A stretch of DNA of 63,976 nucleotides, filler included, from Sphacelaria rigidula (lineage: Eukaryota): assembly GCA_964200075.2 (NCBI GenBank). It is 10 parts of 10 records of this genome, joined end to end, with 100 filler letters (N's around TTAATTAATTAA, not from the genome) between each part and the next. Parts side by side here need not be neighbours in the genome. Positions count along the whole stretch, not along the records: positions 25,634 to 31,941 come from CAXNAA020020880.1; 9 more parts are not named here. The stretch is one strand, 5' to 3'. Positions 24,817-63,976 of the stretch are shown here, piece by piece (positions within the stretch are counted from its first letter, which is position 1; every line of letters starts with the position of its first letter). The position numbers and the translations under genes are program-made. The notes beneath the pieces are model-generated. The model saw only the letters and a list, made by a program, of their open reading frames with translations, was not told the origin of the DNA and searched no databases.

Positions 24817-25821
24817 TTAACGAAGGGGATTGTCCTCTTTTCCACTATCCCTTTTTGACAGGGAATTGACCCCATAACGACCAGTCCCGAGTCCTATCGT
24901 GAAGCAATTTTGGACAGATTGAACCCCAGATCTGCACGCAGGTTCATAGATGCGGTGGATCTGGACGTGGTCGTTAATCCAAGGTCTGTGTAATAATGCT
25001 GCAGACAAGACCCAACAAGCCAACACAACACATACACACCCAGCGCCGAAAAAACACGCACAGACTCCCACCACTCGCGTGCATTAGTTTCGCTGCTAGC
25101 CCTTGGTTATCTACACACGGCAGTCTTTGGTTGACGAAAATCCGTTCTGCATCGGACGAATGACGGCCGCGTGCGTGTCAAAAACAACCGACAACGTGTC
25201 GTTGCTGGCCGTTTTGTAAGCGTGTGCTGTGCGCGCGTCTCCCACAACTCATCATTTCTCAATGAAAGTCTGAACATATTTGATCAATGTCACGCACAAC
25301 GTGCACAGCTGATAATCAGCTACGGCTCGAGCTGTGTGCTTTTGGTTTGCGGGGCCATCAAGTTCCTTAGGTTCAGCTCTGATTGCGTTGAGTTTTTCGG
25401 TGTGCCTTTGCATGTGCCCCTGTCAACGGGGCATGCATGATCCCCTTCGAGGTGCAAAGAAATCCCCTTTTCAAAAAACAGCCGATCATCTATGTTGAGG
25501 ATGGTGCTTTTGATTGAGGATGAGAACCCGGAGNNNNNNNNNNNNNNNNNNNNNNNNNNNNNNNNNNNNNNNNNNNNTTAATTAATTAANNNNNNNNNNN
25601 NNNNNNNNNNNNNNNNNNNNNNNNNNNNNNNNNCCCGGCGTGCCCCGCCCCGGCTTTGTGGGGAGGCGAGGTCAATGGTCTTATGACTATGGCAAGCATG
25701 ATCATGAGTACCCCCCCCCCCCCCACCAGCGTAATGAGTACGCCCCCCCACCAGTTGAAGTAGCAGCACGGATCGTAGAAGGTACTGAGTAGAGATGGGA
25801 GAGGCTATTCAACGCGGCGAT

Positions 25822-25858
<37 letters not shown>

Positions 25859-25861
25859 ACA
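25822..25861. repeat. (AGCAAC)n hexanucleotide microsatellite. Other SSRs: (CAT/CAC)n 26489-26533, (GGCA)n/(AGCA)n 28677-28719, (ACAG)n 61177-61201
   Basis: Direct tandem units. Confidence 0.9.
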
Positions 25862-25942
25862 CGCGCGCTGGCGACCTTCTTGTTTGTGTCGATCATCGAC
25901 ATGAAAAGCCGTTCTCAGGACGGGGGGTGGGAGGAGGGTCGT

Positions 25943-26342
25943 GTACTCATTTGTTGCTCGCCTCAGTCGTTTGACCACTGACCACGCATCCCTTCCAAGA
26001 CGGAGCACCGTTCCTACTCCTATTAGAGACACCTCCAACATTCCGTCGCTCATTATGTTTCTTCCACACATTACACAAAAACCGTTTACGTATCTTATCC
26101 CCGTCCTGGTTCGCCTTCTGTGGCCACCATCTATCTCCTAGTATAGCCATCGTTTTTTCGCTACTGTCTAGCGGATCAAACGATTTCATGCCACCTTCGT
26201 TCACGTAACACATCTGCCCCAGTGGCACATCCCGTTCCTCCTTGTAAAATTCACATTCTGCCACTATATGACTTCTGCTCTTGCTATTACCACAGATGCA
26301 GTTCTGTCCATCTACTTCCTCCTTCTCTTGCCTACTGGTATA
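25943..26342 (-). mobile_element. 5'-truncated non-LTR retrotransposon (LINE, family B): ORF2 C-terminus with CCHC zinc knuckle and 3' end
   Basis: Open frame ...QNCICGNSKSRSHIVAECEFYKEERD...AILGDRWWPQ...NVWKKHNE...GCVVSGQTTEASNK* contains C-x-C-x7-H-x4-C-x2-Y-x3-R. It is flanked by a duplicated target TCTCAGGA(C/T)GG(G/A)GGG at 25913 and 26343. Confidence 0.85.
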
Positions 26343-27597
26343 TCTCAGGATGGAGGGGGGGGGGGATTGGGGCGCGAAGACGCCAAGTCTTGCGAAACAT
26401 GAGGGCCATTGATGCTTCGGTTTTCCGCTTCAGCCACCACAGATAACAAAACGAAATGGGTTAACCAACCAAACAAAAGAATCCGAAATCATCATCGTCA
26501 TTACCATCACCATCACCATCATCATTCATCATCAGCAGCATTAGCATTAGCGCTCTCACTCACCACCATCGCTCATGAACATTCAACACCACTACTGTCT
26601 TGCCTGCGTATCCACCATCGGTATGAAGTCATGCTCCGGGATAACGCTGACGCTCATCTGGTGCAACAGGGCGCGATCCAAAGCCTTAGCACCCACCGAA
26701 AATTTGCGGTAGCTCTGAGCGATGCCGGGGGGCGAGAAGCAGATGGATGTCGCCCTTGCATGAGGAGAAAAGAGCGAACGAAACACACGAGGAGGTCGAG
26801 CGTGGATCCACAAACCGTGGGCACTTCCATAGAGCTACGAAAGGGTGACCCTCATCAACTCTTGCAAACTCTAGACAAAAGATTCAATTATGAAAATTTG
26901 TACAGCGTACAGTATCGACTATTGCGTCTATTGCACAGACAATAGATTCCATACTGAACACAGTACTTTTTTTACAATGGAATTTGTTGTCATTTTCCAG
27001 GGTGCAAGCTCTTGGCATAAAAAAATGGTGAAAATAATACCGTAGCGGCCCGTTCATGAGAAACTGAATATCAGGTCTAGCCTAATTTTCTCATTTGATG
27101 CAAAGGCCTGTTCTATTCGACGTAGTGTGCGGATTGTCGCAGGAGAGAAACATTTTCCTCTATTCTTCTCCGGAAATCTCCGCCTGATTTTGTTTTTTAA
27201 ACCTGGTTCTTATTGAGCGGGCCACTGTTGTACGCAGGAGAGACTCATGAAAATGATGAGCAAAATTACGTGCAGGGGGATCAAGATAGGAATGCCTGAC
27301 TATCGTATAAACTAGCCCCAAATAAATAACCCGATCACCCTTCGGACCACGGTGACTTAGCATATTCAAGACAGAATTCAAGTTCCCCCCAAATGCAGTC
27401 ATTTTCCAGCAAAATCACACAATACCGTGGCCTCGTTTGGCACGCATGGGAACCGCTGGAAAATGATCGCACTTTAGCGGTCGGAATGATAAAAAAAATG
27501 AGAGATATCACGAGGAAGTTTGAAACGAACAGAGCACACCACCCTTATCACGGTATTCATGTTTCCGCAATGCGTGAAAACAGCGGGGGTGGGGGGC

Positions 27598-27992
27598 GTA
27601 CTCACTTGTTTCTTGCCTAGTTTATTTGACTTGCCTTGTTTATTTGACCATTGACCACGCATCGCTTTCGAAACGGAGCACCGTGCCTACTTCTACGAAA
27701 AACACCTCCTACGTTTCGGCGCCCATTCTCTTTTTTTTCCTCCATACATTACACGACAACCATTCACATATCTCATCCCCTTCCTGTCTCGCTGTCTGAA
27801 GCCACCATCTATCTCCTAGTATAGCGATCGTTTTCTCGCTATTAATATAGTGTCGAAGGACATGAAGGATTTCATGCCACATTCGTTATTTTTTCCCCAC
27901 ATTCACCCCTCTAACACCCGTTCCTCCTTGTATAGTTCACATTCTCCCACTAGATGAGTTTTACTCTCCATTTGCTTTGCCACAGAGGAGCA
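27598..27992 (-). mobile_element. Second, diverged 5'-truncated LINE family B copy (zinc knuckle to 3' end)
   Basis: Colinear with 25943-26342 and encodes ESKTHLVGECELYKEER. Both flanks are G-rich (CAGCGGGGGTGGGG / CGGCGGGTGGGG). Confidence 0.8.
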
Positions 27993-30900
27993 CCGGCGGC
28001 GGGTGGGGAGGGGGTCGCTTGTACCCTAAGAAGGTCCGGCATGCCGGGTTCGTTCCTTTCCCCGCACATATCAAGTGAAGAGGCGGGTATTAATGCCGCA
28101 AGAGAGCAACAAGATGTATATAGTCCGTACAACAGATATATTGATACGTGCATATGACGCCGTGCCCCGATGGTTCAAGGGGGTATGTTTGAAGCCGGTC
28201 AGGTCTGAAGGGTCCAGGAGACAAAAAACTGATGGAAGATGCAGTATTTTCCCACCAGAGCCTGAACACTATCGTTGAAAGCGTGAGCACGCGAATAGTG
28301 AAATAAATGTCGACGAGCATCGGCGGGGGTGCGGGAGTGCCGGTCCAGTCCTCGATATACCAAAACGACCGGCAGGTATCGAAGGAGGGACAAGGGTGGA
28401 TCGATCGCCTGAGAGACAGTACGGACTCGTCCCCAGATAGGAAACCTCGCGATAATACAGCGAACCTCGTCCGCCTCGTTTGAAGAGTCTAGGCGTGATT
28501 GTGGGGAAGAGTCCTGACCCCAAGCTTTAACGGGGTTTTAAGTTTTCCAGGCGCAGGTTGCTGCTGGTCATGACACGACGAACTCCACCCCTGTCACACA
28601 CTCCCCGGACAAATGAAAAAATAAACTGAATCCGGTTTAGATGCAAATCGTACATGTGATTCATCCCACAGACATAAGCAGGCAGGCAGGCAGGCAGGCA
28701 GGCAAGCAAGCAAGCAAGCATGACACACAAATAACAAAAATCAATGCAACAAAAAATGGCATATACACATATATCCGGCGCTAGACTCTCACTTCTCCAG
28801 GGCTCCAACAATACGCGCGAGCCCTCCCCCCAGACTGTGTCCCGTTAGGACGACGTTTCTATCCTTGATCGCTCGGACGTACTCCACCAAAGGTCGGTAG
28901 TACTGTGCCTGCATATTTTCGAGGCAAAAAGACAAGATAAAGCAAAACAAAACACGATCCGGTTTCGAGTTTTCATTCCCTCATGTTGAGCAAAAATTAG
29001 ATGGAAACAAAAGAAACAAATGAACATAAAACAGACACCACCATTAGCAAGCACTCTTCTTCAGCCGAAAATATTTTCCAAGAAAAAACAACATTACTTC
29101 GTATTTACATCACACCTCATTAAGTCGGCTAGTCAGTAAACTACGGTCATAACAAGCTTTTTATAAACGTTTTTTTTCTTCTCATACGAAAGATAACCGA
29201 AGAGATAAGTGGTCTTAAAAGTCGGAGGGGGTTACTCATGATCTTGCATGTGGTAATCATAAGACCATTGACCTCGCATCCCTACAAAGCCGGGGCGGAG
29301 CATGCCGGGTTTTGGCCGGACCAGGGGGGCTGGGAGCGCACATGGTATGAAGCCCATTACGATGAGGCTACTTGTGTGAGTGTTGATGCGTGTGTGGGAG
29401 AGCGGGCATACGAGGATGGGATTGAATCATGACTATCAGCGCTACAGCACCCCCGTCGGCTCTCGTCGCCTTTTTCTTTCGCTACTGACGCTTCAGAAAC
29501 CGGATTCCGCGAAAAAAAAGACCGCATCTTCAGTATCGGGGTTCGAGCCCGGAAACTTCGGATCCAACTGGCCATATGTGTACCTGTTGTTCCCACCGGG
29601 ACGCGATTGGATCATGACTTCTGGAACCTTCGAGAAAAAGACTCTGATCAAAAAGAAAAACCCGCATTTCATTTTGCCGCCTGACATCATTAGGCCGGAC
29701 AAAACGCGGGTCCGGTTCCCTCCAGAGGCTTTTTCTCACGAGTATCTGGCTTCCGTCGTGGGACGAAAAAAAAGAAGAGAAAACCTGATAGGATTCTGAG
29801 TTTGTTAGACGACAATCCACGAGGTGCGGGAGCGATGTTCCAATCTGAGACACCGATATTAGGGGCGAGAGATATGGGTTGATCCCTTGAGACCATTAGA
29901 CCACGGACGCGTCCTGAGAAAGGGTAAGCGTTAGGAGTGAGAACAAAAAGTAAATGGAAATAAACAAATCAGTATCGGGCAGTGCCAAATGAAAAACTCG
30001 ATGGGTAACTAACCGTTTAGGCACCAGATCTCAGAAACCCCTGAAAAGGATCGCTCTCCTGAAAATCGGGCTATCCTGCATCCCGCTAAGATTGTTCGGC
30101 CCGAAGCGTACTGAGTACCTTGCAGTTGGATGCAGTAGGCCTAGAGTTTTTATCGTATATCTCTGGTTGACAACATAACTGCTTGATTTTAGACTCGAGA
30201 AACTTCTGAGAAAATTTATGGTTTACGGCAGGTGAGCAGTGGACCCAGCTCGTCCAGAACGCGTTCTTGTCGAAATCGGCGCCTGCGGCGTCGATTTCAG
30301 GTCCACCAACGCACACTTTGCCAAGGAGAACCTATGAACCCCCCTTGCCCGAGGATGCGGTCAATGGTCATACGACTAAGGGAAGCAACAAATGAGTGCG
30401 CTCCCCCCCCCCCCCCCCCCCCTTGCCCAGGGGCCCCTATCCCCTGGGCGGGGGGGTGGGGGCGGGGGGGGGGTGTTCGTTAGTCGTTTAAAAAAAANNN
30501 NNNNNNNGGTGGGGTCCAAGGTTCAACCAACAAGGGAAGAAAAAAATGGGGGCCCCCCCCCCCCCCCCCCCCCCTCGTGCCCGAGGGTCTCCTACGCCTT
30601 GGGTCGGGGTTAGGGTCAGGGTGGGCGTTATTGCTAGTATGTTCGAAAAAACCAACCATAGATATACGACCAAAACTTGAGGTTGCCTCGTTGGATGACC
30701 GTCTACAATGAGTTGCGTCATTTGCTGGTATCGACACTTCCAGAGACGGTCACGAATTTTACTGCCTCATGGGCATCTCGCCATTTCAATACTACATAGT
30801 ACGATCACCCCCCCTGCGCGGAGTTGAGGTTCTCCACCCCGCACGACATGATGTGACTCGGCCGCGATCATGGCTACCGCAAAAGAACGTAAGCGGCAAA

Positions 30901-32041
30901 AAGAACGGTAAATTGTTTGCCTAGCTTACGCAGTGAGTAACGGCGCGTTTTACAGCATCGCTGTGGACCGACGCCAACCCTTAACCCTTTGATCCAATCG
31001 GTATCAATATTCACTTGAAAATTTATGCATGATAGAGATGGACTACCCGCACCGCGGTCTACGGGCAAAGGGGGATGAGACATGATGGGGGGTGAGTGAA
31101 AGTAGGGCCCCCACGGGAGACAAAAAAACGGTTTCGTGCGTTCTTTGACTAGCATTTTTTCCTGACCACACTTCTAACCCTATCCCTTTTCTCGAAACGA
31201 GTCCGCTCGTCGTCCCAAGGGACCAGTCCACATCTCTCCTGGTACATGCGTTGCATGAGAACGGGGGTTCGATTCCCGATGCGCTGGGTTTTTTCTTCGT
31301 CATGTCTGATTTCCCCCGTGGAAAGCGTGAGAACGTGAGTTAACAACGTAGTCGACTGAGTTTGTTTGACGTGAGTTGACGCAGTGCGGGAGTGCTGACC
31401 CAATCCGCGAGACCAAAGTGCAAGGCGTGCACCGGGGGAGATATGGGATGATACCTTGAGACCACAGGCTCATCCTTAGGAGGGGGGGAAGGGGTACGAA
31501 GTGCGACAAAAAAGAAAGAATTTGGAATCAAGGATTGGATCATGACCACCAGCACTCTCGCACCGCGTCGGCTCTCGCCGAATAAAAGTTACCTCGCATC
31601 TTCAATAGGCGGGAAATGGGTCTTCAACACTGGAAAAAAAACAAGTTAGCCATTACGGCAAGCGAAGTCACGTTTTTCCTTACTTCTCCGATTCGAACAC
31701 CGGGGCGCGATTCACCTGGGTGACTGGTAAGATCGCCAAATGTTGAACTATACATATATGTATTGGCGGTGTCCTCATTTGCTGCTTCGTCTTAGCCATT
31801 TCACCATTGAACCCACACTCCAAGACAAAGGTTGAAAAAATATTTATGAAATATATGGGGGGGGGGGGGGGGGGGGGGCGCTGACAGACGAAGCCAGACC
31901 ACACGACGGAAAGTACACACGGGAGACAAAAAAAAAAAAAANNNNNNNNNNNNNNNNNNNNNNNNNNNNNNNNNNNNNNNNNNNNTTAATTAATTAANNN
32001 NNNNNNNNNNNNNNNNNNNNNNNNNNNNNNNNNNNNNNNNN

Positions 32042-32426: not shown

Positions 32427-35400
32427 CTTTCCATCTCTCCCGCCGGACGCCACAACCCCCCCGCGAGCCTCTCCTGCGGACAATGTCTCCACGGGACCAG
32501 AATGCGCATTAGCAACGGCTTTGCAGCAGTTTCGACCTGGGGCGTTAAGCAATATGTATGGTGAGCCGCGGAATATTTCTTACCATCTAACCGCGGGTTA
32601 TTTCGAACAACCGTTTTCGAGCTGTTCAAAGATGGGGAGGAAGTTGGGGAGAAAGTTGGGGAGGGGCACGAGGATTCGCAAATTCCCGGGTTCTGGAATA
32701 ATTGTTTTGTTTCCCCCTCCCTCATAAATATTTTTTCTTCCCGTGTTGTTGGGCTACTGACTCGTCCGACCATACGGCGGGGTGGAGGGGATATTAGCTT
32801 CAATAGTTCCCCAGAAAGTGATCGCAAAGCCGGTTCCTCGCCCCCTCCAGTAAACTGCTACGTAGGTATCATTCCTTACCCATGCCGTTGTATCATGGAT
32901 TCGTTGAACGATATACAATAGGGGGGAAGGGCGGCTAGGGAAAATTTGATTTCCAACTTTCCCCGGATTCTGAACTTCCAGGTTATTCTCTCGTGCACTC
33001 AGGGACGTCACGGGTATTGTCATCCCTTCCATGTTGCAGCACCACTCCGAAGCATATCATCTAGTTAGAAGGGGCGAGCCGCTAGAGCAAAGGGCTAGAG
33101 AGGACAGATCGCCTTCTCCTGGTGAGACATTGCCAGCATCTGCAAACGATATGGCCGCTGTCTATACCCCACCTATGATTGAACGGATCACCTCGCCACA
33201 GGCACAGACTGCCTTGTAGAGTTCCGGATATCATGCAAAAAGGAGTTGAGGACAGCTTCGACGCCTTGGCTCCTGTCGGCGCAGCGCAGATACAGAGTTG
33301 GACTTCTGATGATGGAGCAATTTTTCCGACTCCAGCAATTCCCCTTGGTTTCAGCGAAGTCGCCAAGACATGTCGGACAAAGCGCACAGAACGTACCGAC
33401 ACAATGTATTTTTGTTTGTCACAACTTGTTGTGCACCCAGACAACCATGGACGAAGGTCAGCGGAACAGGGTGTAGTAAACAGTTATTGACCAACACGAT
33501 TTCTCGACTGATTGGTTGTAAGCATTGATTGATTGATCGTCGCACATAAGCTGATCCACCGAGGACCCTAGCAGAGGTCATTTTCCATGAGATGGGCGTG
33601 ATCACGGTAAACAAAACGGAAACAATTGCTGAAGAAACGTGAAGAAAGAAGAAAGATAGAACACACAGAGCGTACCAGAAGAAAAAAAAAAGAGACAAAG
33701 AGTAATGAAAATGGTCGGCCTCTGCGACATTGTTTCAGGTGGAAAAGGTCTTGCGTAAGAATGCATGCACTCATACCCAAACAAAGGCAGGGAAATCGTG
33801 GGAAAAGGGATTGCAGCATCTGTGCCGCCTTTGTACTTTTACACAGCAGCATTCGTGGACGACGCACATCTTGTACCTTTCAGTCGGCAAAGCGTAATGT
33901 TCTTGTTCTCGACGACAGAAACTCTGCCTGTTTAGAACGGGAACGTTCCTTCGGTCTCTTGAAGACAAACCACGTACCTCTTCTTGACGAAAAAGCCCGT
34001 TGACGCTTCCTTGACCCAGAACACTAAAGGAGGGCTGCCCTTGTGCATCTGACCACACGTGACCAAGCACTTGCCATCCGCTGTCCATGCCATGCCCAAA
34101 GGCCGAGTTCGACCCGTTCTGGGTTTTTTTCATGATTTGACGGTAAGAACAGATAAACACTCCGCCTCAAAATGTAGGGAGATTCGGGATCCTTGTACTC
34201 TAATCGTCCCATATTCGACGTATATGGATGTGGTGCTGTAGGCATGTTTTGTTTACAAGTGTTGGGCACGGGGACGCGGCCCGTGATGTTGAACGTCAAA
34301 ACATCTGGGTGCTACGTGCGGATCTTTTCAGTGACCAACAGGATTTTGCCGAGGTTTGAAATCTAGTGTGATGTTCGAGGTAGAAAACACAACAAGACGA
34401 AACCAATTCGCCATGCTCGGCGTGTGGCTGTCATGTGCTGAAAACAATGCATCACTAAAAAAGACAACCATTTCCTCCACCCGTGTTTGGAGTACAACAG
34501 TGCCACGATTGGTTGTTCACCAAGTTGTCCCGCGCTGCACATGTCATCCACCAACCATCGCGTGAACCAACAGTAGCTTGAGTTGAAAGCGTCGATTCCA
34601 ATTGAAGGGTCTCATAATCTTGGCTATCTATGCGCCCTCTGCTCATCAAATGAATGCAGAGCCCAACAGTGCTTGACGAGCGTATTAACGTCAGACAAGA
34701 CTTGACTATGTGCTGTCCCCCGCTGATGGGTGGGTCCAATAGCGGCCACCTCACGAGTAACGCGTCGATTGCATCAGCTCCGACAGAGGTGGTCGATGAG
34801 CCTCAGCAAGGACACTAGTCCAAACTCGCTACGCCCACGTTACGGAACCATTCTACAACGGTATCGGTGCGTCAATACAAACACACAGCAGATCTTTTGC
34901 GGCAGGGATAATCAGGAAACGGGGTGTATCCGCTCGTCATAGTACCTCGTGCTGAAAATGTGTTCACCAGTGGCCACCTTTACCACCAGCAAGGAGTGGG
35001 ATGCGTCGGCTCCAACTGAGGCCAACAGACCGCCGCACGGAGACCAGGCTAAGCTGGCGACGCCCACGGTGTGGAAGCCCGCAATAGTGTTTTTAATTGT
35101 CTTGTTGCTGATATTCCACACAACCACCTGGGCACAAACAAGTGTGTTTGAGTGTGTGTGGCGTGTGGGTCTTGCTTCATGGGGTGATATTTTTCCAATA
35201 CTATTCTGCTGAAGGACGATTGATTGTGACTGGAAATGGATCCCAAGTTGCCAGCTAGTGCTGAACTGGTCGTTCCACGCAGTCGCCGACACTGTAGAAG
35301 TGCAGCAGCAATATTTAGGCGTGGCACTATCGGTAAAGTATGAAATAAGACTGCTGGAAGTCGTTGATTATACTATGAATGCAGGCCATATCGAAACAAT

Positions 35401-36938: not shown

Positions 36939-37727
36939 CTGCTCACGAGACAGTGGAAAGAACGGAACCAGCGCGGTTTGAGTCAATACAGTACGAAAAT
37001 AGAAGAAGGTTTGAAGCGCCAATTTTCACGAAAAACATATTGCTGAGTATGCGGAGGTTCTTCGGTAAATATGGTGTTATTGTGGTTTGATTACACGAGT
37101 CGATATAGCAAATAAAATATGACGAAGCGCCAGGGTAGCTATCATCTGCCCCGTGTGCAAGGATTACGAACGCTGGGCATGTACAAGCTTTCGTATCTGA
37201 CTATGCTTCGATTGATGCTACGAGTGTGAATTATGTTTCTACTGCTCTGCAGACACAAGACGTGAATCCCCTGCCGCATTCCACTGAAACGGCATTGCCT
37301 TGTGCCATGAGAGGAATTCGGGTTGGATGCTTGAAGTCCACTCCTGCCCGACCTCTTCTTGGGTACAAATGTTTTGGGACAACCATCCTGATTTTTGTTT
37401 TCATCGTGTATCATCGCTGGCCGTCGCCTCGGTTGCGAGGTACCTTCTAGAGATATGCAATGCATTCTTATCTTAAAGGCAACACCTACGCGAGTAAGGG
37501 ACGTATTGCATCGAATAATGAGCACTGCCAAAAACAAATGTGACCGCCTGAACTGCGGTTATTTTCTTACGGAAATAGTTGATATTTCACGTCACCGTTG
37601 TCCACTGAACGCTCACTAAAAATGGGTATACATCACGCCATGAAAATACGTGGTAGTTTTGAAACCACGATAAAACGAGGGGATCTTGGATCTACGATGA
37701 AATGCAAACGTTAGTGCAGATCCGCCG

Positions 37728-37762
<35 letters not shown>

Positions 37763-39429
37763 CGGGGCTGGGGAACAACCTCCTCTGCGGGTAGGCCGGA
37801 ACCGAACACACCGAGGAGNNNNNNNNNNCTCTTTTCCCCACCGCCCCCCTTCCCTTCTGGGGGTTTTTGATCTACGAGGAAATGGAAACGTTGGTGCAAA
37901 TCCCCCCCCCCCCCCCCCCCCCCCGTGATGTGACTGCGCGGAGACGATCGTACTACGTAGTGCTTACATGGTGAGACACCCATGAGGCAGTGTGGAACCC
38001 GTTGCTGTATCTGGAAGTGGTAACACCAGAAAATAAAGCAACTCATTCGAGGCTGTCATCTGAATGCGAGATAATCAGTACGCGTTTGGCCGAACAATCT
38101 GAGCAGGATGCATCTCACCCTTCATGCGACTCGCCGAACACACCAAAGCGCTTCGTGCGTGGTGATTGATTACGAGCCTGGTCCGGAAACAACCCGGCAT
38201 GCTCGTCCCGACTTTGTAGGGATGCGAGGTCAATGGTCATATGATTATGGCATGTAAGATCATCATGAGTACATTCTGGTGTCTCTATTAGGAGTAGGAA
38301 CGGTGCTCCGTCTCGAAAGGGATGCGTGGTCAATGGTCAAATGACTAANNNNNNNNNNNNNNNNNNNNNNNNNNNNNNNNNNNNNNNNNNNNTTAATTAA
38401 TTAANNNNNNNNNNNNNNNNNNNNNNNNNNNNNNNNNNNNNNNNNNNNGGGAAAGCACTGTTTTAGGCTTGAGCCTCATCTCAAAGGTAAACCTCAATTC
38501 GCACAATTTGTTGTTGTTTAGTGTTTTCTGCGTGTCCTCCCGAAAGCAATCACGTTCAGCGCCGATTCCCTCATGGGGATGCGACACACCCAAGACAAGA
38601 ATGTAGGTGAAACAATGGAAGAAGTAATAGAGGGCACGGTTAGTATGCGTTGAAAGTCTTGGAGTCCGTGAAAATATGGCTCGGTTTTATACCACGTGAC
38701 GCAGATCGAAATGTCGTGTGCCGGGCGGTAAATTCGGCGTTTCGGCCTTGCGAACCAGATATATGAAACAATTACAAGCGGAATCCTGCTCAAGCATGAT
38801 GAGTACAGGCAGCGCAACAAACAATGTCGTGCAGATAGCCTACACCCCGCACGGTCAAAAGAAAAAACATGACGATCGCCACACACAAAACAAAATGACC
38901 AAAACATGAAATGAAAAATCGTGCAGCTCTACAGAGCAAGACGACGGCGGCGTGAAATTATGAAACACACAATAATATCAGGTGGCTCAAAAAAAGTTAT
39001 GGTAGACACGACACCCGGAGATGCAGAAAATGTTGGAATGCATGATGAAAGAAAATCAATCAAGACCGAAAAAATTGGAAGTTTTACCTTACGTGCATTT
39101 CACAAATCCCCATGGCCACGATAAAAAGGCCAAATACATACCGATCATGGTGGGTTGATTGTCCCAATTCAACATGCAACAAAAATACCGAAATCATATG
39201 GAGAATGCCTGGAACAGGATCATTGCTGGTTAGGTACAGCGGTGATATTATGGATAAACAAGTGTAGGTCAGGCGAATGTGATACATTGCAGGCGACAAT
39301 GACAAAACAAAAACTCTGCGATCAGATCGAAACAAGGTTAAAAAAGAACATGAGGGCGGAAAATACGCGTGCACATGACAACATGTGATGCGATAGCAAG
39401 CGAGAAACGTATAGTCGACAGTAGGCGGT

Positions 39430-42769: not shown

Positions 42770-43018
42770 GACACTTTCTACGATAGCCCCCCCACAAGAA
42801 GTGCATGGTTTTGGGAGGCAAAATCTTCACGTACATCGAGATTGGAAAAGTCGAGCACAACGAGAAGCTAGGAATTCCCACACTTGGGTTCGTTCGAGCC
42901 AATGTCGCCAATATGCTGCGCTTCATGCAGCCTGAACCCGAACATCAGGCGCTGTATGGCCATTTTTTTCGTGACACTTTTAGCTGGTTCCGGGGGGGGG
43001 GCTATCGTAGAAAGTGTC
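42770..43018. mobile_element. 249-bp MITE with 24-bp TIRs and a 4-bp TSD (second, truncated copy at 44663-44755 in opposite orientation)
   Basis: TIR GACACTTTCTACGATAGCCCCCCC at both ends; CACA duplicated at 42766-42769 and 43019-43022. Confidence 0.85.
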
Positions 43019-43385: not shown

Positions 43386-45108
43386 GTTTTTTTGCTAGAT
43401 GTTTGCACTCTAAAACCCTATCGATTTCGTCTTTTTTGGGATAACTTCGTCAAACGGACACCAAACGCATCTTGCTCGAAGGGGGACCTGGACAAATAGC
43501 AGTTGCTGCTGCCTACCTAGTATTATCCTTCGAATCGAAGTCTTGAGCAAGAACCCCAGCGTTTGGTGCCCATGTACAAGGATGATCCACACCGAGTATC
43601 ATGCTTCGAAACGCACCTGACAAGGGGGCAACACCCCCGTACAGACAGTAGCAATGCTAGCGGGTTCTGCGTCCTGACAGTCTGTGACAGCCTGGAAGCC
43701 GGCAAGGTGGTTATGGTAGTGCCCTTCTAGCGATATTAACTTACTGTGCACTGGAGCAGAGCTTGCAGGTGAATATTTCGGCGATTACCTCACCTGCAAT
43801 TCGCCCAGATGTTGCCCCTGCATTATATATGGAAAATGTACCTCACCGTGGGCAAAACAATTCTACAGACAGTACGAACACGACATAGAAAGTGTACTGC
43901 TCAACGTCAAGTGTGCTGTGTGTGTTGTCGTCCCATAAATTCTGGACGCTGGTCGCCATCTTTCGGTATATGTGGGCGCATCTGCCGCGGCTGTGCATCC
44001 ATACAGCTTTGCCCAAGATACAGGCAGCCATTACAGCGGCGTAGGCGGCCTTTCACTCCTGCGTGTGCCATCTGGGACAAACGCCCGCTGTAGATGTAAC
44101 ACAGACAGCTTTACGAAATGTGACGTAGCAATATAGTAAAAAAGCGCGTGCGAGGAGGTTTATATCCTGCGTACACCTTGACTGCGATACGACGGCTGCA
44201 CTCATGATGTGGCGAACTGCATAGGACAACGCGAAATTAATTCAAGACAGGGATAGGCTAAGGATGCGACGTTCTGCGGTGTGCTTTGTCACCCTGCACC
44301 CTGCCGCTGTGCAGTGAGCAGGTAGTACCGCCGCAGGCGTCACGCCGCGGTTGGTATACAGTATTGGCTCCACACCCACAGAGTAACCTCTGCATTGAAA
44401 TTCAATAAAACGCACTGAATTCAATTACACTGGCGGAGCGCCTTATTTTCGAGCAGCACGCGCGCTAGCGTTTCCGTGTTGCCGACACCGTGCCAGCGCG
44501 CTTGTGCACTACATCGTTTTACTCCCCTGTTGCAGCCCGTCACGGTGTTGCTCCTCACGTTTCATGACGCTTTATTCGAAAGCACGCGGGAGAAATGCCA
44601 GCGAATCCATCGTTGTTGCACTTGGAGGTGGTGTACCAGGTTTTCGACCTAGTACTGCCGCAGACACTTTCTACGATAGTCCCCCCCCAAAAACCAGCTA
44701 AAAGGGCCAAGAAAAAAATGGCCATTCAGCGCCTGATGTTCGGGTTCAGGCTGCANNNNNNNNNNNNNNNNNNNNNNNNNNNNNNNNNNNNNNNNNNNNT
44801 TAATTAATTAANNNNNNNNNNNNNNNNNNNNNNNNNNNNNNNNNNNNNNNNNNNNGGTAGGTGTGTGGGGGTACTCATTTGTTGCTTGCCTTAGTCATTT
44901 GACCATTGACCACGCATCCCTTTCGAGACGGAGCACGGGTAGGGGGGGGAAGGGTTCACAGGTGTTCGTTTTTGTTCTTTTCTCGTGCACCCCCGACACC
45001 CCTTCAACTCACGTACGTATCAGGACGCAAACGGCGGTAAGAGGCGAGAGAAAAGAGGACTACGGGGTCACAGTGTCCTTATCGCCCCACATGCAGCGCT
45101 GTTCTCAC

Positions 45109-51162: not shown

Positions 51163-54100
51163 NNNNNNNNNNNNNNNNNNNNNNNNNNNNNNNNNNNNNN
51201 NNNNNNTTAATTAATTAANNNNNNNNNNNNNNNNNNNNNNNNNNNNNNNNNNNNNNNNNNNNGCGTACTCATTTGTTGCTTGCCTTAGTCATTTGACCAT
51301 TGACCACGCATCCCTTTCGAGACGGAGCACAGGAAAGCACAGGAAAGCAGCGGGGGGGGGGGAATGAGACAACACTACACTCTACTGTCTGTACCACACA
51401 GCTTTCGTACTCTATTGTACTGCTGTTGCTGTATTCTCTGTTTTTAATTTGTCTTCGTCTGCAGTCGCTCCCAAAGTCGGTATCTGCATCGGAAAAATCT
51501 TTACTTGCAAAATGATACATCACAGTACGCCCATGAGCAATGCACCTGCGGCAGCGTGTATGATCTGCGCAGAAGGCCTTCCAGGGTCCTCTTGGAACCG
51601 ACCAGACGGATCCTTTGTTTCTGACTGGCTAGCTTGATTTGTCCATCAGGAAGAGCCAGGACACTTTGGGGGGAAAATTTCCTACATGTTTTGTGAGCAA
51701 TTCGCACCCCTAACAGTGAATGCACGTCACTCGCAGCTATAGTGCCTGAATGCACGAAAAAGATCGCACCCCGGCAACCTTTGGACCCTATAGCACTCTA
51801 CCGTCCATCTGTGACTTTCGAGAGTGATAGACGTAGCATCCAAGCAATGATGTATGCCGCTTACAAACAGCCATCCTTTATAGCATAATCACTACCAATC
51901 GCAACGGTTGTTTCACGACGGAGCTGCAGGGGTATCATTGCGCAGGCTTGGGGTGAACAACTTTCAAAATTCAAGCCCAGCTGGCGTCGGTAAACGGGGC
52001 GTGCGAAACGGTACAGTGGTTTCACTTCATTTTGAGTTGTAGTACGAACTCACGTATGGCGAGTACAGTGGACAGCAAGCTTGATATGTGAGGCAGCATA
52101 GCGTCGCTCCTTTCAGCTGCATTGCGCAGCAATAATCGGGCTTACGGCAGGTATTGCATCGAAGAATATAGCAAAGCGGTGTAGATAATCATTATATCCC
52201 AGCGTCGACCGTGATGCGGTATATAGAACAAGCATCAAGTTGTCTGTCATATCTCACAGCTCCTTGCAGGATCAAATTTCGGACCCTGATCACATTTCGT
52301 TTTGCAGTACAGTATGTATATTTTCAGCATCGCATGTATCGGTACCCACATTGCACACGAACAGAGCGGCGAGCATTGGTGCGAACTTGTGTGTAATGCG
52401 ATTCGAGTACAACGGTATAGAGCAGTAGTACAACTCAACACAGCACAGCGTCTTCATACTGCACTCACAACGACAGGGCGGGGTACAGACACCTCTGTGC
52501 AGTTTATAGCGGAGGATGGTTTGTGTCATCCACATGATGACGGGGTGTAAATATTCATCGCTTCAACGTTTTCATTGCTGTGTGCGGAAAATCTGACCTG
52601 CGACGGCGTGTAAAACAAGCATAGCATGGTCTTGTACGTGGTCGCAGGTGATACCCCCCCTAGCTTTATGTAACATCATGTTTCCCCGTGTACGCCTTCG
52701 TACGCTTCACTCATATCTGTTTGGCGGTTTGCCTCTCGGTTACAACGTGTCAAGGCAAAAGCAAGGTTGGATAGCAGCAGATCGATGATGCTTGAAACAA
52801 CGCTGGTCGACTGATCCACGTGGCGACTTGGGGCGGGGAATTACACCTCAAGTACCCGCTATCCTGTTGAATGTTTAGATATATGGCACCGCTGTCATGC
52901 AACATGCACCCCAACCATCACACTCAGCCCGTTTATGGTCTCATGCATACCAGTATCAGTTGATCAGCAGGAGAATGATTGATGATATCATGCAGGTTGC
53001 AGAAAGATGGATATCAGCTCGGTTTATGCACTGTGCAAACATTGTGACAACGCTATTTCAGGTGATGGGGGGTGCACACAGCAGATGACCTGCTTTTATA
53101 CCCCTAGTTCAACGGCAACAGACAGTACATGAAAAGTTTGATCCAAACAGTTTAGGCGTAGGATATCTCAGATTTTTGACAGGGCACAGCAAGCTCCAAA
53201 TCTAGCGGGCAGCATTGCAACGGCATCCCTGAACCGTACCCAAGTGTGGTGGAAACCACTACATCGGTCCCGTCGTTTGATTACCCCTGCACTGGCGCAA
53301 AACGTGAGCGCGTCGCTCCCAGCGAACATGATAATAGCTGGTTATTTTTCTGTCAAGTTATGTCCTTGTTAAACAAATCTAGCGTGGTGATGCAAACGAG
53401 GTTGCAAATCTTATTTTCATATGAAGGATCGAATCTCTCAGCCGCTGTTACGAATCTCGTCCTGCATCGTGGTACCTACCCGAAGGTGTGACTACCGCAG
53501 GTGGTATGATACGACCTAATAGTCTCGGTTGTAGCACCATGTTACAAACAGAATAGTGTTGGCCATAGTTGTTGTCGCATTGCGTGTCTCTATTGAGCAA
53601 GCCGAGTACTCGAGCGGAGCAACAATAGCATTTCCGTCATGCAAGTTACGATAATTCGCTAGCTCATGCAAATACGACTTACTTTTACTATATAATTCCA
53701 CATTTTACTATAGATTTGCGCACATCGTTCGCATTACTATTGTGTCGACCTTCATACATCTGCTCAGTGCTTGAATCAAACATCGTTACAGTCTCACCGT
53801 ATTCCTTCAAACAATCGTAAGCTCACAGCACGTGGGAAAGTCCAACGCAGAACGATACACGACGAACGTCACGATATCTCGATCACAGCTTCAGGCCGAT
53901 TCGATTTCTCTTTTCTCCTGGTGGTGGTCACTTGGCATTTCAGAGGAGAAGTAAAACACCAGGGTGCTGGTTGAATCGATCCTAGGAAAGAACCGAATCC
54001 AACCAGATGTAAAGAGGCATGTTTATGTATTCCGTCTCTTGACGGCTTACAAACGCCTTCACCCCTGATTGCGGTACTAGCCAGTTCCCGCAATCAGCCC

Positions 54101-54889: not shown

Positions 54890-57800
54890 CGCTGCACAAT
54901 TTTCGAATATGCTGTAGCAAGAATAGGATTTCAGAAACATGCAATCCACAGAATTTCGATGTTGGCACAATTTATGAGACTCCATCATGATGTTCACTCA
55001 AACAACGTGCTGTGTCAAGCAATAATCCTCTACAACCTCACACATTGTGTGCGTGTATATCTCAGACCTTCTCAGGGTGTTCACCCTCACAAGGTTGCTG
55101 TGTCAAGCAACCCCCTACAACCGTGCACGGTGTTGGAGATCAATTTGAGGCTTTTGAGCCTTCCGAAGGTGTTCACAAGGTCGTCCACAGGGTGTCCACC
55201 TTCGCAAGGTATGCACAAAGTGTAGAAAAACATCCACCTGTGTAATGGTCACATGACCATGACTTTGACATGCAAGATCACGTGTACACCCGCCCCCCCG
55301 CCCCCCTCAACCCGCCCACAAGCTCGATTACCCGTCCATCGTACCCCAACCGTGCTTGGGTTTCAACGAACACGCTGCTGTTCATCGTCCACATAGTAAG
55401 AACGCATCGTGTCAAGGAAAGCGCGACGCCCCACTTCGCCGAACAGCGCTTCCCGCTCCCCTGCGTCCTTGTTTCCCTTTGCCTCAGCCTTATCCCGTAG
55501 TCCATACTCGAGACAACTCTACAGGGAGCGTCCTGATACACACCGGACAAATTACGAAGTCTCCTGCGGGTTTTGCGCTTCGCCTGGCGCAAAGCAAGTT
55601 TCACGGACAAAGCTTCAGGAAATATTAGATGAAACCTGCCGTCGACACTTGACGTGCGTTCGGTCACCCCGCGACGCTGCTCATGCCTACACTGAGTCAC
55701 TTGTGTCACTTGTGAAAAAAAAAAGCGCTGGCGAAAGAGAGGGCGACGCACACTCTCGTCTGTATTGCGTATCTCTCAGAGTATGTGCATGTGCCTCGCA
55801 CTTTGCGTCAACAAATTCGTTGTCGCAAAAACAAGAGAGAAAAAAGGACGCCGCAGTATTTATTATATACGTAAGTGAAGGAGGGAGAGCGTCGTCTGCA
55901 TACACTAATAATAATGTGAAGAAAAAAATGTGTCGTGGTTTTTTTCCTTTCTTCGACTCATAAAAACTGCTCCCCCCCCCCAAAAAAGAGATGCTCTTTT
56001 AGCTGTTTCGACAAAAAACAGTACAGTGGGAGGTCTCACCACACAGTGCGGTCAAAGTTATTCATCTCATGTCCCATCACTATACTTATATAAAAAATTG
56101 ACCAGTCAAGAAACTGCGGGCAACTTTCGTCTACTGTAAACCAGTATAGTGTGCGGGGTCCCAGCATGGTGCAGCCATACCAGGCTGGCGGTCTACCGCA
56201 CTATAGCGGGACCCCCACAGCATTCGCTCACTTGTACGTCCTATCTTAAGTTGAATATTGCTACGTATGTTACTCCACCCCCACCCAGCCCCCCGCTCTT
56301 CTCCCAACTCACATTTCATTTCACAGGTATCCTACAAGTAATTGTCAACAACTCTGCCCGCCACCACCCCTCTCCACCCCGCTTCGCCTCGCAGGCCCTA
56401 TTGCCACAGGATATCATGCCTACGTTGACCTAAACCCAATCCAGCTTCAGGTGCATACTTTACAAGTATTCTGAGCAAGTGTACGCAAATATGTGAAATT
56501 GGCCGTATTTGCGCACACGCCCACCCACCTCTCCTTTTTCCTCAACCAACTGTACCACCTTCAATCATGGGGGTTTCGTTCGTTGAGTTGTACGTCTTTC
56601 TCGCTGTAGAATAACCCCCGTCCCCCCTCGATTTTTTCTTGGGGATTGTTCTCCCCAATTTTCAGAAAAAAAAAAGACACTAATCAAGGCGATAGGCACC
56701 TTGTTGTCCATAATCACATTTGTGAGCCAGAGAAATCAATGATAACCGAGCGAATCGTTACATTGTTCACGAATGGCCAACATGTCCGGTAGTTCGTCAA
56801 GTCGTCACGTGCGTCCTTCAGCCAACAACCTTGTTGCGGCAGCCAAATGAAGATTATCCCTTCCCCACTCACGTACCCCCTTCTGCAAGTACTCCCGATA
56901 TCAACTCCAAACCCTGCCCCCCCCCCCCCTCCCCCGCTTCCCTCGCTGCTTGTACCCCAAGCCCGTTCGAAACACGCCAACTAGGTTTCCAATCCACTTT
57001 GCTCCCAACAAACTCACGTCCCGCGTTCTTTGCGAACCGCAACAAAGGATAACGCAATGGCACAGGAACAGAAGATACACAACATCGATCACGAGACGAA
57101 AAAAAGAAATCGACTGAAATCGACTGAAAGCGTGAGCGTGGGAAAAACAAACTAGCTGTAGATGAGGCGGAGAATGTCGTTGTGAACGTAGTAGGCTCCT
57201 GGTCCAGTGCTCACGAGCTGGAACACCTGCAGGTAGTGCAGTGGATTGTCGTTGTCAATCTGGAATTTCCAGACGCCAGGGAAGGTCCACGAACGATGAA
57301 ACGGGGGACGGGGGGCGCGGGGGAGGGGGGGAGGACGACGAAGACGAGGAGGGGTGGGGTGGTCATGAGATCATTGGCCTCGCATCCCTACGAAGCCTGG
57401 ACGAAGCACGCCCGGTTTTTGCCGGACCAGGAAGACAGGGAGGGGGGGGGGGGAGGGCGGTAGACTTCACCATCTGCGGTGTTATATCCGCATTTGAATA
57501 CAGACTTTCCCTCGTTATCACCATTCGCTCACCGCGCTTCTCTGGGAAAACGGGGGCACTGTTGTACCANNNNNNNNNNNNNNNNNNNNNNNNNNNNNNN
57601 NNNNNNNNNNNNNTTAATTAATTAANNNNNNNNNNNNNNNNNNNNNNNNNNNNNNNNNNNNNNNNNNNNCTGGCCATTTTTCGTACCTTTCTCAGGCAAA
57701 AAACGAGAAGGTATACCTTTTCTAGGCCATTGCCCTTAGTTTTATGTTTCGTTATTCCGTGCCAAGCACTTATCCTGTACGGGGAGAGAGATGCACATTT

Positions 57801-60800
57801 CATAAGCCGAGCTGTGATGATCCCAGTATGCTTTCCCGGAAGACTGGCTGCTTCGGTGAGGGCCATGTCCGTGCTCAGATCGCCCGGCCCCAGCTCGCAG
57901 ATGTACGGTAGTGTGGACGGGACACACATAAGTTGTTTGGATTAGAGATTGATCCTCCCGTGGGAACCCGGTCAGCTAGCAAGCTGCCTGAGAATAGAAG
58001 GAAAAACCCCAGTGGCAGTTGTTCCAAAGGGATCGACATCGCGTGACTTAAGGGACACAAGGAAAAGCGATTTCCGCAATTAAGCTCACTTATGAAAACA
58101 AGAAACGAAAGAAAAAGTATCGTATATATTGTACTTCATTTCAACACTGCTCGAAGTGTGTGGAAATCCTACTTACAGGATTTTATTTTATTTTATTTGC
58201 TTTTCTTAATCTTAGTCTACCCCGTTCGTCTGTTGTACCTTTATGGCTGTTATTTTCACTCTTCTTCAGCGAGTGTACTCCCATTATATTCTATTTTCTC
58301 ATCTCCGGTACGTCTATATCAATTGGATAATGACCATGGATGGCCGTGGGGGATATTATTTAGGTGCGACGATCAAAAGAATGATATGGGTGAGATACAG
58401 TACACGGGTAGAGGAACGTATCAGGGTCATGATCCAAAGCAGTGTCTCGTTTGGGAGGCGCTAGATGGATCCTTCCTGATGTCCCTCAGACACCCTTGCA
58501 CAGAACGCCAGGCCTCCATCTAACTATGCTGCCCACCCCCCCTCCCTCCCTCCCTCCCTTCCCCTACTCACAGGCTTTTTATTAGTTCAAACACACATAT
58601 GACCGCCCCGTCACACTTCTAACCCTTCTCCTTCCTCAGGACAAGTCCATGGTCTCAAGGGCCCAACCAATCAACCCATCTCTACCCCGGTAACGGTACT
58701 ACACGTCTTGCATTTTGGTAACATCATGGATTGGATCATGACCATCAGTACTCCCGCATATGGTCAACTCTTATCAAATACAAACTCAGTCGAACTATTT
58801 TCGTCTACTCGACGTCCTCATGCTCTCAACGCCAGGAATCAGATACCCAAAAAGGAAAAACCCAAACCCGCGTTTCTCTCCGCCCTAATGGCGTAAGGTG
58901 GACCACTGCACTACCGGGGCGCAGCATAAGCCATTGGGTCGGGAAGTAACGGCTTCGTTTCCCGGCAAGTGCAACTCGTTTGATTCTTCCTGGAACGTTC
59001 TCTGATTTCCGCTGTTCGAGAACGTGAGGATGTGAGTAGCAAAAAGGACGTTAGGTGTCTACTTGTGCCAAAATTTCAGCGCCTAAAACGTGAAACAATC
59101 AAGCTCCATGTCACCTGCATCAACCGCAAATAGGATTTCTTGGCTGGCCCGGCTCGTACAGTATCATAATCCATAAAATGAACATTTTCCTGTACACGAC
59201 CTTGAGTTCACGAAGGGAGGAAAATAAAATAAACTTGACGCCACGAATGAATTAATTAAAAAACAACAACGTCACCAATAAACAAGAAACAAATAACGCA
59301 CCTTCACGATCTTGCATGTCTGAAAGATCTCCATGCTCCCGCTGTGGGTTTCGGGGTTTCCATTTTCGTTCGCCTCCGAGTAGCGGAGGAATCTGCACTT
59401 GCGAGCCAAATGGGAAAGTTGCTCTTGCGTCAACATCCACATGCCCTTTTTTCCATCGCATCCACATTCCAAATCGCGATGGGTGGAAGAGGGCAAGGGG
59501 GGCGGGGAGGGAAGGAGAGAGGGGGACGTGTCTTTCTTCCAGTTCGGGGCCGTTATTCATAGTCATGGTTGACAGATTTGTGAAATACTACGCCAACGCT
59601 AGCGCTAACCCGAGGCATAAAAGAGGGTGAGGGGGTGTAGAGGGTGCTTTAGGCCAGTGCGCGTTGGCAGCCCTCAAATCGGCGCCACAGGCGCCAATTT
59701 GGACAAAAAAACGCGTTCTGTGCACACCATAGTGGGAGGCACTGAGGACTGTAAGCCCACTGAAGATCCAAATCTCAGTGTTAACACTCAAAAATCAAGT
59801 ACGAGTTGGCCGGCCTCTGTCGCCACAGGCCACAGGCCACGTACGGCTTACTTTTCCGAGTTTCAAGGGTGAAATTTCAACACCAGAGGAAACAACACTT
59901 CGGTCTACCGCGCGACCGCTATTTTTTCTTTCGTTTTTTCTTGCTATTTCCCCCTAACTCTTAATAACTGCGGGCGATTCAATTATTTGAGCTATTTTCA
60001 AATCCCTTAAAACTAAGCGAGAAAAAAAACAAAATAGAATTAGACAGCGGTGACAGGGTAGGCCTGAGACCGGTTTCTCCGGTGTCGGATATTTCACCCC
60101 AATATTCGAGGAATTGAGTCGCGCAACACCGTTTGACTGTTTCCGTATGAAAAAAGTGCCCCGGTATTCTAATGGTCAGACTGTAACTCTCAGGGTGCAG
60201 AGAGTGTGGGTTCGATTCCCGCCAGGTGCATTTTTTTTCCCTTCGGAATATATGATTTCCACCGTCGGAAACGTGAGAACGTGAGGAAGGAAAGATGGAT
60301 TCATCTCCTGAGACCGCGTTTCAGTTTCGCTTTTCTTGGGTTCGTCTCTATCGTGAGACCATGGCTGGACCCCTGGGAGGTCAGTCAAAGTGCGACAATC
60401 AATCAATCAATCAAGACCGCGGATTCGTCTCGTAAGAGGGGAAAATGCTTAGGGTGTAGAAGAAAAACAAATTAATGTACCGATAACATACTAGGTTGAG
60501 TAAACCACGTGCCCAAATATTCACCAAAGAGGAATGTTGCCGGGGATTCTGCCACGTATGAAAGCCATGATGGGACTGTGGAATATCTTGACGTCTACGG
60601 AGCGTGAGGTTATCCGCTGGGTCGGCGGTATCCGCATGCGCGAGTTCCACATCGTCCCCCCCCCCAACGTAATAAGCGCCGAAATGTTGGAGGTGTCTTT
60701 ATCAGGAGTAGGAACGGTGCTCCGTCTAGAAAGGGATGCGTGGTCAATGGTCAAACGACAAAGGCAAGCAACAAGTGAGTACGTCCCCCCACCAGGTGTA

Positions 60801-63955: not shown

Positions 63956-63976
63956 CCAAGGGGGGAAGGGGGGGGG

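Follow-up and report, generated by a model that had tools for sequence, protein, structure and literature searches.

A LINE without poly(A) and a non-coding partner family that probably insert at oligo(C).oligo(G) tracts in Sphacelaria rigidula

The stretch of Sphacelaria rigidula DNA analysed here (63976 bases, hereafter the window) carries at 25942-26340, on the minus strand, the 3' remnant of a long interspersed element (LINE) whose open reading frame (ORF) stops just before a C-rich junction. How does an element of this kind choose its target, and what primes its reverse transcription when no poly(A) is present? A sequence-only reading of this DNA had proposed that the element belongs to a family inserting at oligo-C/G tracts. 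In this study, we examined the two repeat families of the window that share such an end, A and B. Our results suggest that an apurinic/apyrimidinic endonuclease (APE)-type LINE (family B) and its non-coding partner (family A), both lacking poly(A), probably insert through target-primed reverse transcription (TPRT) at oligo(C).oligo(G) tracts.

The two families end in a C-run

Including diverged copies, 23 3' ends of the two related families were located in the window. Both families end with ...ATGAGTAC(A/G), then (C)n. The motif ATGAGTAC itself occurs 14 times in the window for 1.26 occurrences expected, and 14 was reached in 0/100 shuffles. Flank statistics were calculated over 22 informative ends, the end at 51264 being left out because a spacer follows after 1 base. 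A C-rich 3' flank (at least 5 C within the first 8 bases) was observed for 19/22 ends, as compared to a background of 3.6% taken over every window position on both strands (binomial p 5e-25), and CCC was present inside the first 6 flank bases for 18/22. No A-run or poly(A) was found behind any of the 22 informative ends.

The base preceding the C-run differs between junctions (A, G or C). Beyond the C-run, the flanks are mutually unrelated, both among the window copies and in two metagenome copies described below, and therefore do not hide a 3' untranslated region (UTR) downstream of the elements. Thus, the earlier claim that A and B ends run into oligo-C instead of poly(A) is borne out: past the C-run neither a conserved 3' UTR nor poly(A) was found. 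The copies and their flanks are listed below (TSD, target-site duplication), followed by the spacers, of the form N44-TTAATTAATTAA-N44, which link the ten pieces of ~6308 bases each that make up the window.

1-42, plus strand: family A 3' end opening piece 1, then C8
64-100, plus strand: family A copy of 37 bases within the flank of copy 1-42; perfect 16-bp TSD CCCTCCGCACACGAAA (48-63/101-116)
2789-2828, plus strand: family A copy; 3' flank CACACG, not C-rich; C-rich tract CCCTCCCCACA just 5'
5230-5330, plus strand: family A copy, then C7
9585-9646, minus strand: family B copy; TSD CCCCCCCCCTC (5') and CCCTCCCCCTC (3')
12818-12879, plus strand: family A 3' end opening piece 3, with flank CCTCCC
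14398-14776, minus strand: family A copy of ~380 bases, non-coding, flank CCCTCCCCC
19226-19286, plus strand: family B 3' end opening piece 4, then C11
22926-22971, plus strand: family A copy; perfect 11-bp TSD ATCCTAGTATG (22915-22925/22980-22990), the 5' copy preceded by CCC only and the 3' copy separated from the element end by CCCCCCCT (22972-22979)
25634-25712, plus strand: family A 3' end opening piece 5, then C14 (25711-25724)
25730-25742, plus strand: 13-base mini-insertion, CGTA + ATGAGTACG; perfect 12-bp TSD CCCCCCCACCAG (25718-25729/25743-25754)
25942-26340, minus strand: family B copy (by translation and tblastn), last ~131 codons of a single ORF, TGA at 25947-25949, ending ...AAATGAGTACA
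26343-26366, minus strand: 5' TSD copy of the preceding element (by flank alignment), C11-12 TCCATCCTGAGA on the minus strand
25913-25935, minus strand: 3' TSD copy of the same element (by flank alignment), TCCTCCCACCCCCCGTCCTGAGA, with six C-rich bases, CGACCC (25936-25941), between the element end and the aligned TSD
27597-27991, minus strand: family B copy, intronic (by tblastn, flanks and a spliced RNA contig); TSD CCCCACCC(G)CCGC
29231-29325, minus strand: family A copy; 3' flank CCCCTCC; TSD not callable beyond the C-run
30355-30399, plus strand: family B copy; TSD C6TTGCCC(G)AGG (5', 30339-30354) and C20TTGCCCAGG (3', 30403-30431)
37925-38273, plus strand: family A copy directly behind a C23 run (37902-37924); nested B copy at its 3' junction
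38276-38348, plus strand: family B copy beginning 2-4 bases past the preceding A end, cut by the end of piece 6
44870-44938, minus strand: family B copy close to where piece 8 starts; 5' flank with C8, 3' flank CCCACACACC
51264-51333, minus strand: family B copy at the start of piece 9; 3' flank cut after 1 base; C11 located 18 bases 5'
55250-55288, plus strand: A-like 3' end ...CACGTGTACA, then CCCGC7GC6
57360-57431, minus strand: family A copy without its last ~23 bases; TSD C12TCCCTGTCTT (5') and CCCCACCCCTCCTCGTCTT (3')
60666-60783, plus strand: family B copy; TSD TC10 (5') and TC6 (3')
63259-63361, plus strand: family A copy; 3' flank CTCACG, not C-rich
63440-63958, minus strand: family A copy of 519 bases, the longest, no ORF; 5' flank with C9TTC6T
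Spacers: 6310-6409, 12718-12817, 19126-19225, 25534-25633, 31942-32041, 38349-38448, 44756-44855, 51163-51262, 57570-57669

Target-site duplications open with the C-run

TSDs were called by aligning the 30-base 5' flank to the 30-base 3' flank of the 14 copies for which both flanks are readable. Right-register matches of 7-24 bp were observed in 9/14 copies: 16/16, 11/11, 12/12 and 12/12 positions for four of them, and 10, 11, 24, 13 and 19 columns for the others. All six TSDs named in the sequence-only reading are present, at 48-63/101-116 (16/16), 22915-22925/22980-22990 (11/11, or 14 columns with one mismatch when CCC is counted), 25718-25729/25743-25754 (12/12), 25913-25935/26343-26366 (24 columns, 3 mismatches and 1 gap), ~57340/57431 (19 columns, 3 mismatches) and 60653/60782 (TCCCCCC). 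The median score of the true flank pairs was 9.0 versus 6.25 for 182 mismatched pairs (Mann-Whitney p 0.010); this is a harsh control, C-runs being common to the mismatched pairs.

Eight of the nine clear duplications open with a C-run and then continue into unique sequence (TCCGCACACGAAA, ACCAG, TTGCCC, TCCTGAGA, TGTCTT). The ninth, at 22926, is ambiguous: the perfect 11-bp duplication is preceded by CC or CCC only. With this reservation, the C-run belongs to the TSD, as had been claimed. In addition, a run of C5 or longer is present within 30 bases of 5' flank in 13/18 copies, as compared to a 3.5% background. C-run-initial TSDs, together with C-rich flanks on both the 5' and the 3' side, support the proposal of insertion at oligo-C/G tracts. 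In TPRT geometry, the TSD starts immediately where the element's 3' end stops; with a TSD that opens in the C-run, the priming nick would be located in, or at the edge of, the bottom-strand G-run.

Alternatively, the C-run might be a mere tail of the element, added or carried by its RNA, in which case the targets would not be C-rich and the 5' C-runs would be a coincidence. The 3' run indeed exceeds the 5' copy at 22972 and 30403, and the supplementary entries of an Ectocarpus study carry the curated note '(C)n 3'' (PMC12477816). However, the 5' C5+ runs are far above background, eight clear TSDs (22926 being ambiguous) open with the run and extend into unique sequence, and 31 of the 47 C/G runs of at least 7 in the window lie beside no A or B copy. 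We therefore consider it very improbable that the run is only a tail.

Contigs of other samples were also inspected. Among 15 of 929 contig joints, none takes out an insertion and no empty (pre-insertion) allele was found. Differing by ~1-2% from the window on unique sequence, contigs of X3 and X4 bridge the junctions of insertions 27597-27991 and 29231-29325, and joints between C-runs (e.g. 25711 to 30548) are cross-matches of other copies. Contigs of sequencing run X6, presumed to be RNA, pass through element copies into their flanks and are uninformative on the 3' end of the element transcript itself.

The junction recurs outside the window

Public metagenome contigs were scanned once with the shared 3' pattern. 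Two loci were obtained, L001 and L002, from unrelated assemblies. Both are family B, ending ...AACAAATGAGTACG (...ATGAGTACG), and are followed by C8 and C10, respectively, with unrelated sequence beyond. In run X3, 136 contigs leave the window's copy at 29257, and their loose-end consensus, written on the element strand, is ...ATGAGTACACCCC. In contigs of three other samples, the copies have a word depth of 1e5-1e6, as compared to ~40 on unique sequence in X3.

The same junction can be followed in predicted proteins. We fetched 207 related proteins, 65 of which carry a C-terminal GCVVNG-type motif; the canonical end is respected by 38 of these and read through by the other 27. PP, the translation of a C-run, is present within 10 amino acids (aa) past the canonical end in 17/27 read-through proteins, for a chance expectation that we roughly estimate at ~3%. 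Gene predictors read past the element stop into the C-run in P0004, P0006, P0007 and 24 others, giving spurious proline-rich C-termini.

These recurrences bear on a trivial explanation, a sequencing or assembly artefact at G/C homopolymers, or chance. It is true that pieces tend to begin or end at A/B repeats and runs, and that homopolymer lengths are unreliable. Nevertheless, two metagenome assemblies unrelated to each other, contigs from three more samples and the 17 proteins above all show the junction, the TSDs reach into unique sequence, and the C-richness of the 3' flanks has the binomial p of 5e-25 already given. An artefact or chance therefore deserves almost no credence. The C-run is instead a real property of these retrotransposon families.

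Family B is a 5'-truncated APE-type LINE

Copies of family B in the window are 5'-truncated. The copy at 25942-26340 (minus strand) is an ORF remnant with a CxCx8Hx4C motif; its 130-aa product matches P0002, a protein of 1360 aa, with 66% identity over the entire query (E 1.3e-44). In the tblastn alignment, aa 1228-1360 of P0002 correspond to 26345-25950 (66% identity, E 1.4e-45). P0002 is encoded by one ORF carrying an endonuclease (EN), a reverse transcriptase (RT) and the C-terminal CxCx8Hx4C motif, and members of its 90% cluster are 1360-1377 aa long. Its Pfam domains are Exo_endo_phos at 170-392 (E 3.4e-12), Exo_endo_phos_2 (E 3.3e-07) and RVT_1 at 740-989 (E 9.8e-31), the last also found in P0001 and P0003.

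The three proteins have in common the C-terminus ...KASNK, for which the DNA reads AAC AAA TGA GTAC (N K stop). The TGA of the family B ORF thus sits inside ...AAATGAGTAC, with only 4-5 nt left before the element end or C-run. The conserved 3' recognition region would therefore lie inside coding sequence. The sequence-only reading had stated that an ORF with a CCHC knuckle stops in the terminal motif and leaves essentially no 3' UTR. This is correct for family B and does not apply to family A, which has no ORF.

A tblastn search of the window with P0002 gave 8 loci, each covering only aa 1228-1360 or less, which is the 5' truncation expected of a LINE. No RT or EN domain was detected in a Pfam scan of 31/32 window ORFs of at least 150 aa. 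An HMMER search of the whole protein library gave 846 proteins at E<=0.001, showing that the family is large in public assemblies. Atlas look-up of the clusters returned generic EN/RT clusters only and no clade, and cluster members have no informative names. Taken together, the endonuclease N-terminal to the RT in P0002, the 5' truncation and the variable TSDs show that family B is an APE-type LINE.

One family B copy could be placed within a gene. A spliced RNA contig of run X6 (5319 bases) joins 28792-28911 to 26603-26753. A minus-strand gene therefore has an intron at 26754-28791, which holds the B copy 27597-27991. Simple repeats of trinucleotide type, (CAACAG)n-like and (CATCAC/CATCAT)n-like, are located near the 25942-26340 copy, at 25812-25860 and 26478-26560.

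Family A shares only its 3' end with family B

Family A has no ORF in any frame across the 519 bases of its longest copy. It can be aligned to family B over the last 60-75 nt only, with 45/61 columns identical across the last 60 nt, the upstream parts being unrelated. This restricted similarity suggests that A probably borrows the machinery of B via the common 3' end, and family A is thus probably a non-autonomous partner mobilised by B. RNAalifold, run on 13 sequences, predicted a hairpin in the shared 3' region with a UGGUC/GACUA stem and a loop that differs between the two families. A search against Rfam with gathering thresholds had no match anywhere in the window, where the 5' end of family A may be incomplete, and gave no sign of a head derived from a small RNA such as tRNA, 5S or 7SL RNA. 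Tandem A 3' ends were observed at 1-100 and 25634-25742.

We also considered family A as the 3' UTR of a second LINE. This was rejected given the absence of an ORF over 519 bases and the better fit of the published non-autonomous RTEX-N1.

C/G homopolymers are available as free targets

Runs of C or G of at least 6 bases number 83 in the window for ~21 expected from composition, and runs of at least 7 number 47 for ~5 (a composition-based estimate). Eight of the latter abut an A or B 3' end and 8 are located in a 5' flank. The remaining 31 are beside no A or B copy, and such tracts therefore exist as free targets; some of them may have been seeded by the tails of old elements. The longest runs with no recognisable A or B copy adjoining are:

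11353-11404: 52 bases
11219-11239: 21 bases
37729-37760: 32 bases
30553-30574: 22 bases
31857-31878: 22 bases
60829-60849: 21 bases

Other C-run-bearing sequences were noted in the window. A repeat ending in GACACTTTCTACGATAG and Cn (42787, 43001, 44681) was examined as a candidate C-tailed retroposon and rejected, as it corresponds to the terminal inverted repeat of a 249-bp element resembling a miniature inverted-repeat transposable element (MITE):

42770-43018: MITE-like element with 31-nt arms at 42770-42800 and 42988-43018, 90% complementary and containing a C7-C10 run; a third copy of the terminus at 44664-44688, in the stretch 44664-44720

A sequence of ~35 nt, GATCTACGAKGAAATGSAAACGTTRGTGCARAT, is present twice (37690-37760 and 37868-37924), each time leading into a long C tract (C32 and C23, respectively). 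Possibly, this sequence is where another short retroposon with a C tail ends on its 3' side. The second of the two C tracts is directly followed by the inserted family A copy at 37925.

Elsewhere in the window, an ORF at 34912-35367 (minus strand) shows weak WD40/beta-propeller matches (best Beta-prop_EML, E 3e-06, under the curated cut-off) and is probably an exon of a host gene.

Proposed priming at the G-run

In the mechanism that we propose, the endonuclease would nick the bottom strand within, or at the edge of, a G-run. The G-ending primer would start the cDNA at the element 3' end, and a second nick 7-24 bp downstream would generate a TSD opening with the C-run. The template RNA could in addition end in a short C tail, acquired when transcription reads through into the C-run that follows the source copy. 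This tail would base-pair with the G-run primer, much as poly(A) pairs with the T-run primer in L1. The whole would then be a G/C mirror image of the L1 cycle, in which an oligo(C) RNA end derived from the source flank anneals to the nicked G-run and each insertion leaves a fresh C-run as the next target. We put this complete cycle forward tentatively, as a possibility that falls somewhat short of an even chance.

Run lengths at the junctions are informative in this respect. The 5' run is longer than the 3' run in five of the nine TSD pairs (8/3, 13/7, 10/6, 11/interrupted 9 and 12/interrupted 9), as a nick inside the run would give. Conversely, the 3' junction is richer in C than the 5' TSD copy in two pairs, with C7T versus CCC at 22972 and C20 versus C6 at 30403. 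This extra 3' C fits a template C tail, non-templated addition or slippage alike.

The endonuclease alone might instead set the pattern: it would nick at G-runs, and reverse transcription would begin from the exact RNA 3' end (...GUACR), with no pairing and no C tail. R2 provides a precedent, its RT starting at the exact RNA 3' end without base-pairing. Extra 3' C would then reflect G residues added to the primer without a template, or slippage of the homopolymer at a later time. Most TSD pairs have no 3' C excess and five of nine are longer on the 5' side, homopolymer length varies between samples, and the conserved 60-75 nt 3' region of A and B is suggestive of specific 3'-end recognition rather than of a tail, all of which agree with this scheme. 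It accounts less well for the two copies whose 3' junction is clearly richer in C than their 5' TSD copy, and for the variable junction base (A, G or C), expected if priming can start within the C tract. Moreover, the supplementary entries of the Ectocarpus curators treat (C)n as the consensus 3' terminus (PMC12477816). On balance, we judge it unlikely, though a serious contender, that the endonuclease acts without any pairing.

Relationship with known elements

The sequence-only reading knew of no described element of this kind. This part of the reading does not hold, since a supplementary table of the Ectocarpus study PMC12477816 (Genome Biology 2025) already records (C)n 3' ends and C-rich TSDs. 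Its entries describe RTEX-1a_Ec32 as 'single EN-RT ORF; (C)n 3'' (5867 bp, TSD 'C-rich') and RTEX-2_Ec32 as '(C)n termini/TSD' (TSD 'C-rich'). The non-autonomous RTEX-N1a (607 bp, TSD 'C-rich') is annotated '60 bp 3' end 83% RTEX-1/RTEX-2; can be present in tandem'; the curators could not trace where the head of RTEX-N1 came from. RTEX-N2 (188 bp) also has a 'C-rich' TSD. In the main text of PMC12477816, the terms C-rich, G-rich, oligo and homopolymer do not appear, and TSDs are mentioned only for Harbinger and in the methods; in that study the property is therefore recorded, and neither analysed nor given a mechanism. As far as these entries go, the table consists of annotation notes, with no site logo, nick position or mechanism. 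RTEX-1 is described as young and probably active in Saccharina in the part of PMC4421812 that deals with it.

As judged by these entries, RTEX-1, RTEX-2, RTEX-N1 and RTEX-N2_Ec32 resemble the families of the window in having a single EN-RT ORF, a (C)n 3' end, a C-rich TSD and high abundance. RTEX-N1_Ec32, as annotated, parallels family A: ~600 bp, non-coding, with the last ~60 bp common with the LINE, a possible tandem arrangement and a 5' part of unknown origin. It differs in the identity between LINE and partner over the last 60 nt, annotated as 83% there and 45/61 here. Family B is thus most likely of the RTE-X kind. The window families would be new members of this recorded brown-algal C-tailed RTE-X kind or, possibly, the very same families.

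Similarities with mammalian L1 include an APE endonuclease with an RT, TPRT, strong 5' truncation, variable TSDs and the mobilisation of non-coding partners, as well as a 3' homopolymer complementary to the nicked primer and opening the TSD. L1 differs in its poly(A) tail, which results from polyadenylation, in its two ORFs and in its 3' UTR, and its target is a T-run, 5'-TTTT/AA, and not C/G. Furthermore, L1 is described as 'relaxed' in the relevant section of PMC3747384, having no 3' sequence in common with its short interspersed elements (SINEs), whereas 60-75 nt are common to A and B.

Two other groups of LINEs offer partial parallels. The first, Waldo, Mino, Kibi, Koshi and Dong, belongs to the R1, Tx1 and R4 groups. 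These APE-type LINEs target microsatellites, (ACAY), (AC), (TC), (TTC) and (TAA) respectively, and, like the families studied here, insert in simple repeats, their specificity being ascribed to the endonuclease (PMC3812793). Unlike them, they use di- to tetranucleotide targets and are found in animals; among the targets covered in the pertinent part of that review, no C/G homopolymer is named.

The second comprises stringent LINE/SINE pairs with short 3' repeats, such as UnaL2/UnaSINE1 with (TGTAA)n, and the I element with (TAA)n, as presented in part of PMC3747384. There too, poly(A) is lacking and, according to that presentation, a conserved 3' end is common to LINE and partner, the short repeated terminus being thought to permit slippage or annealing at initiation (PMC3747384). 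By contrast, a single C is the unit repeated in the families of the window, their LINE lacks a 3' UTR, the shared region is coding in B, and the 3' hairpin is predicted only, with 0 covarying pairs. A literature search on poly-C tails or C-rich ends of non-LTR retrotransposons, poly G and homopolymer targets gave nothing relevant by title or abstract among the papers listed.

Strength and meaning of the C/G model

A number of observations weigh against insertion at oligo(C).oligo(G) tracts by a tailed RTE-X LINE, or limit how far it can be taken. Three of the 22 informative ends have no C-rich flank, at 2828 (CACACGAT), 38273 (TTCTGG, where a nested B copy follows directly) and 63361 (CTCACGTA). 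Five of the 14 copies (2789, 5230, 14398, 29231 and 44870) have no TSD beyond a short C-run; for 14398, the flank at the corrected 5' boundary shows only a weak C-rich resemblance by eye. As to a C tail, the observations point both ways: the 3' run is the longer one in two copies and the shorter one elsewhere (C6 versus C10 at 60666). Homopolymer length itself differs between samples, as judged by the G11 run at 26355, which is 2 bases shorter in X3 and X4. Compensatory changes were observed in 0/14 pairs of the predicted 3' hairpin. The window holds no full-length element, so that EN and RT are known only from the relative P0002, and the RTE-X assignment relies on architecture and habits, not on sequence comparison.

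Sampling is also to be taken into account. In at least seven pieces (1, 3, 4, 5, 6, 8 and 9), one edge lies inside an A/B 3' end or within ~15 nt of one. The ends in the window are therefore an enriched and not a random sample, with pieces tending to begin at A/B ends; breakage of the source contigs at this high-copy repeat is the probable cause.

With these points considered, we still regard insertion of family B and its partner at oligo(C).oligo(G) tracts, by TPRT and without poly(A), as the probable explanation. The C-run pattern is already on record for brown-algal RTE-X elements. These elements and their C-runs have consequences for annotation: they break assemblies, occupy introns and cause proline-rich read-through in predicted proteins (27/65). 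If the mirror-image cycle is true, it would yield tandem and nested 3' ends and add to the ~nine-fold excess of long C/G homopolymers in this genome, and family B would be the first LINE shown to use homopolymer C:G pairing between tail and primer. More generally, a LINE with a C/G homopolymer both as tail and as target would be a natural test of tail-primer annealing versus endonuclease specificity in setting the start of reverse transcription.

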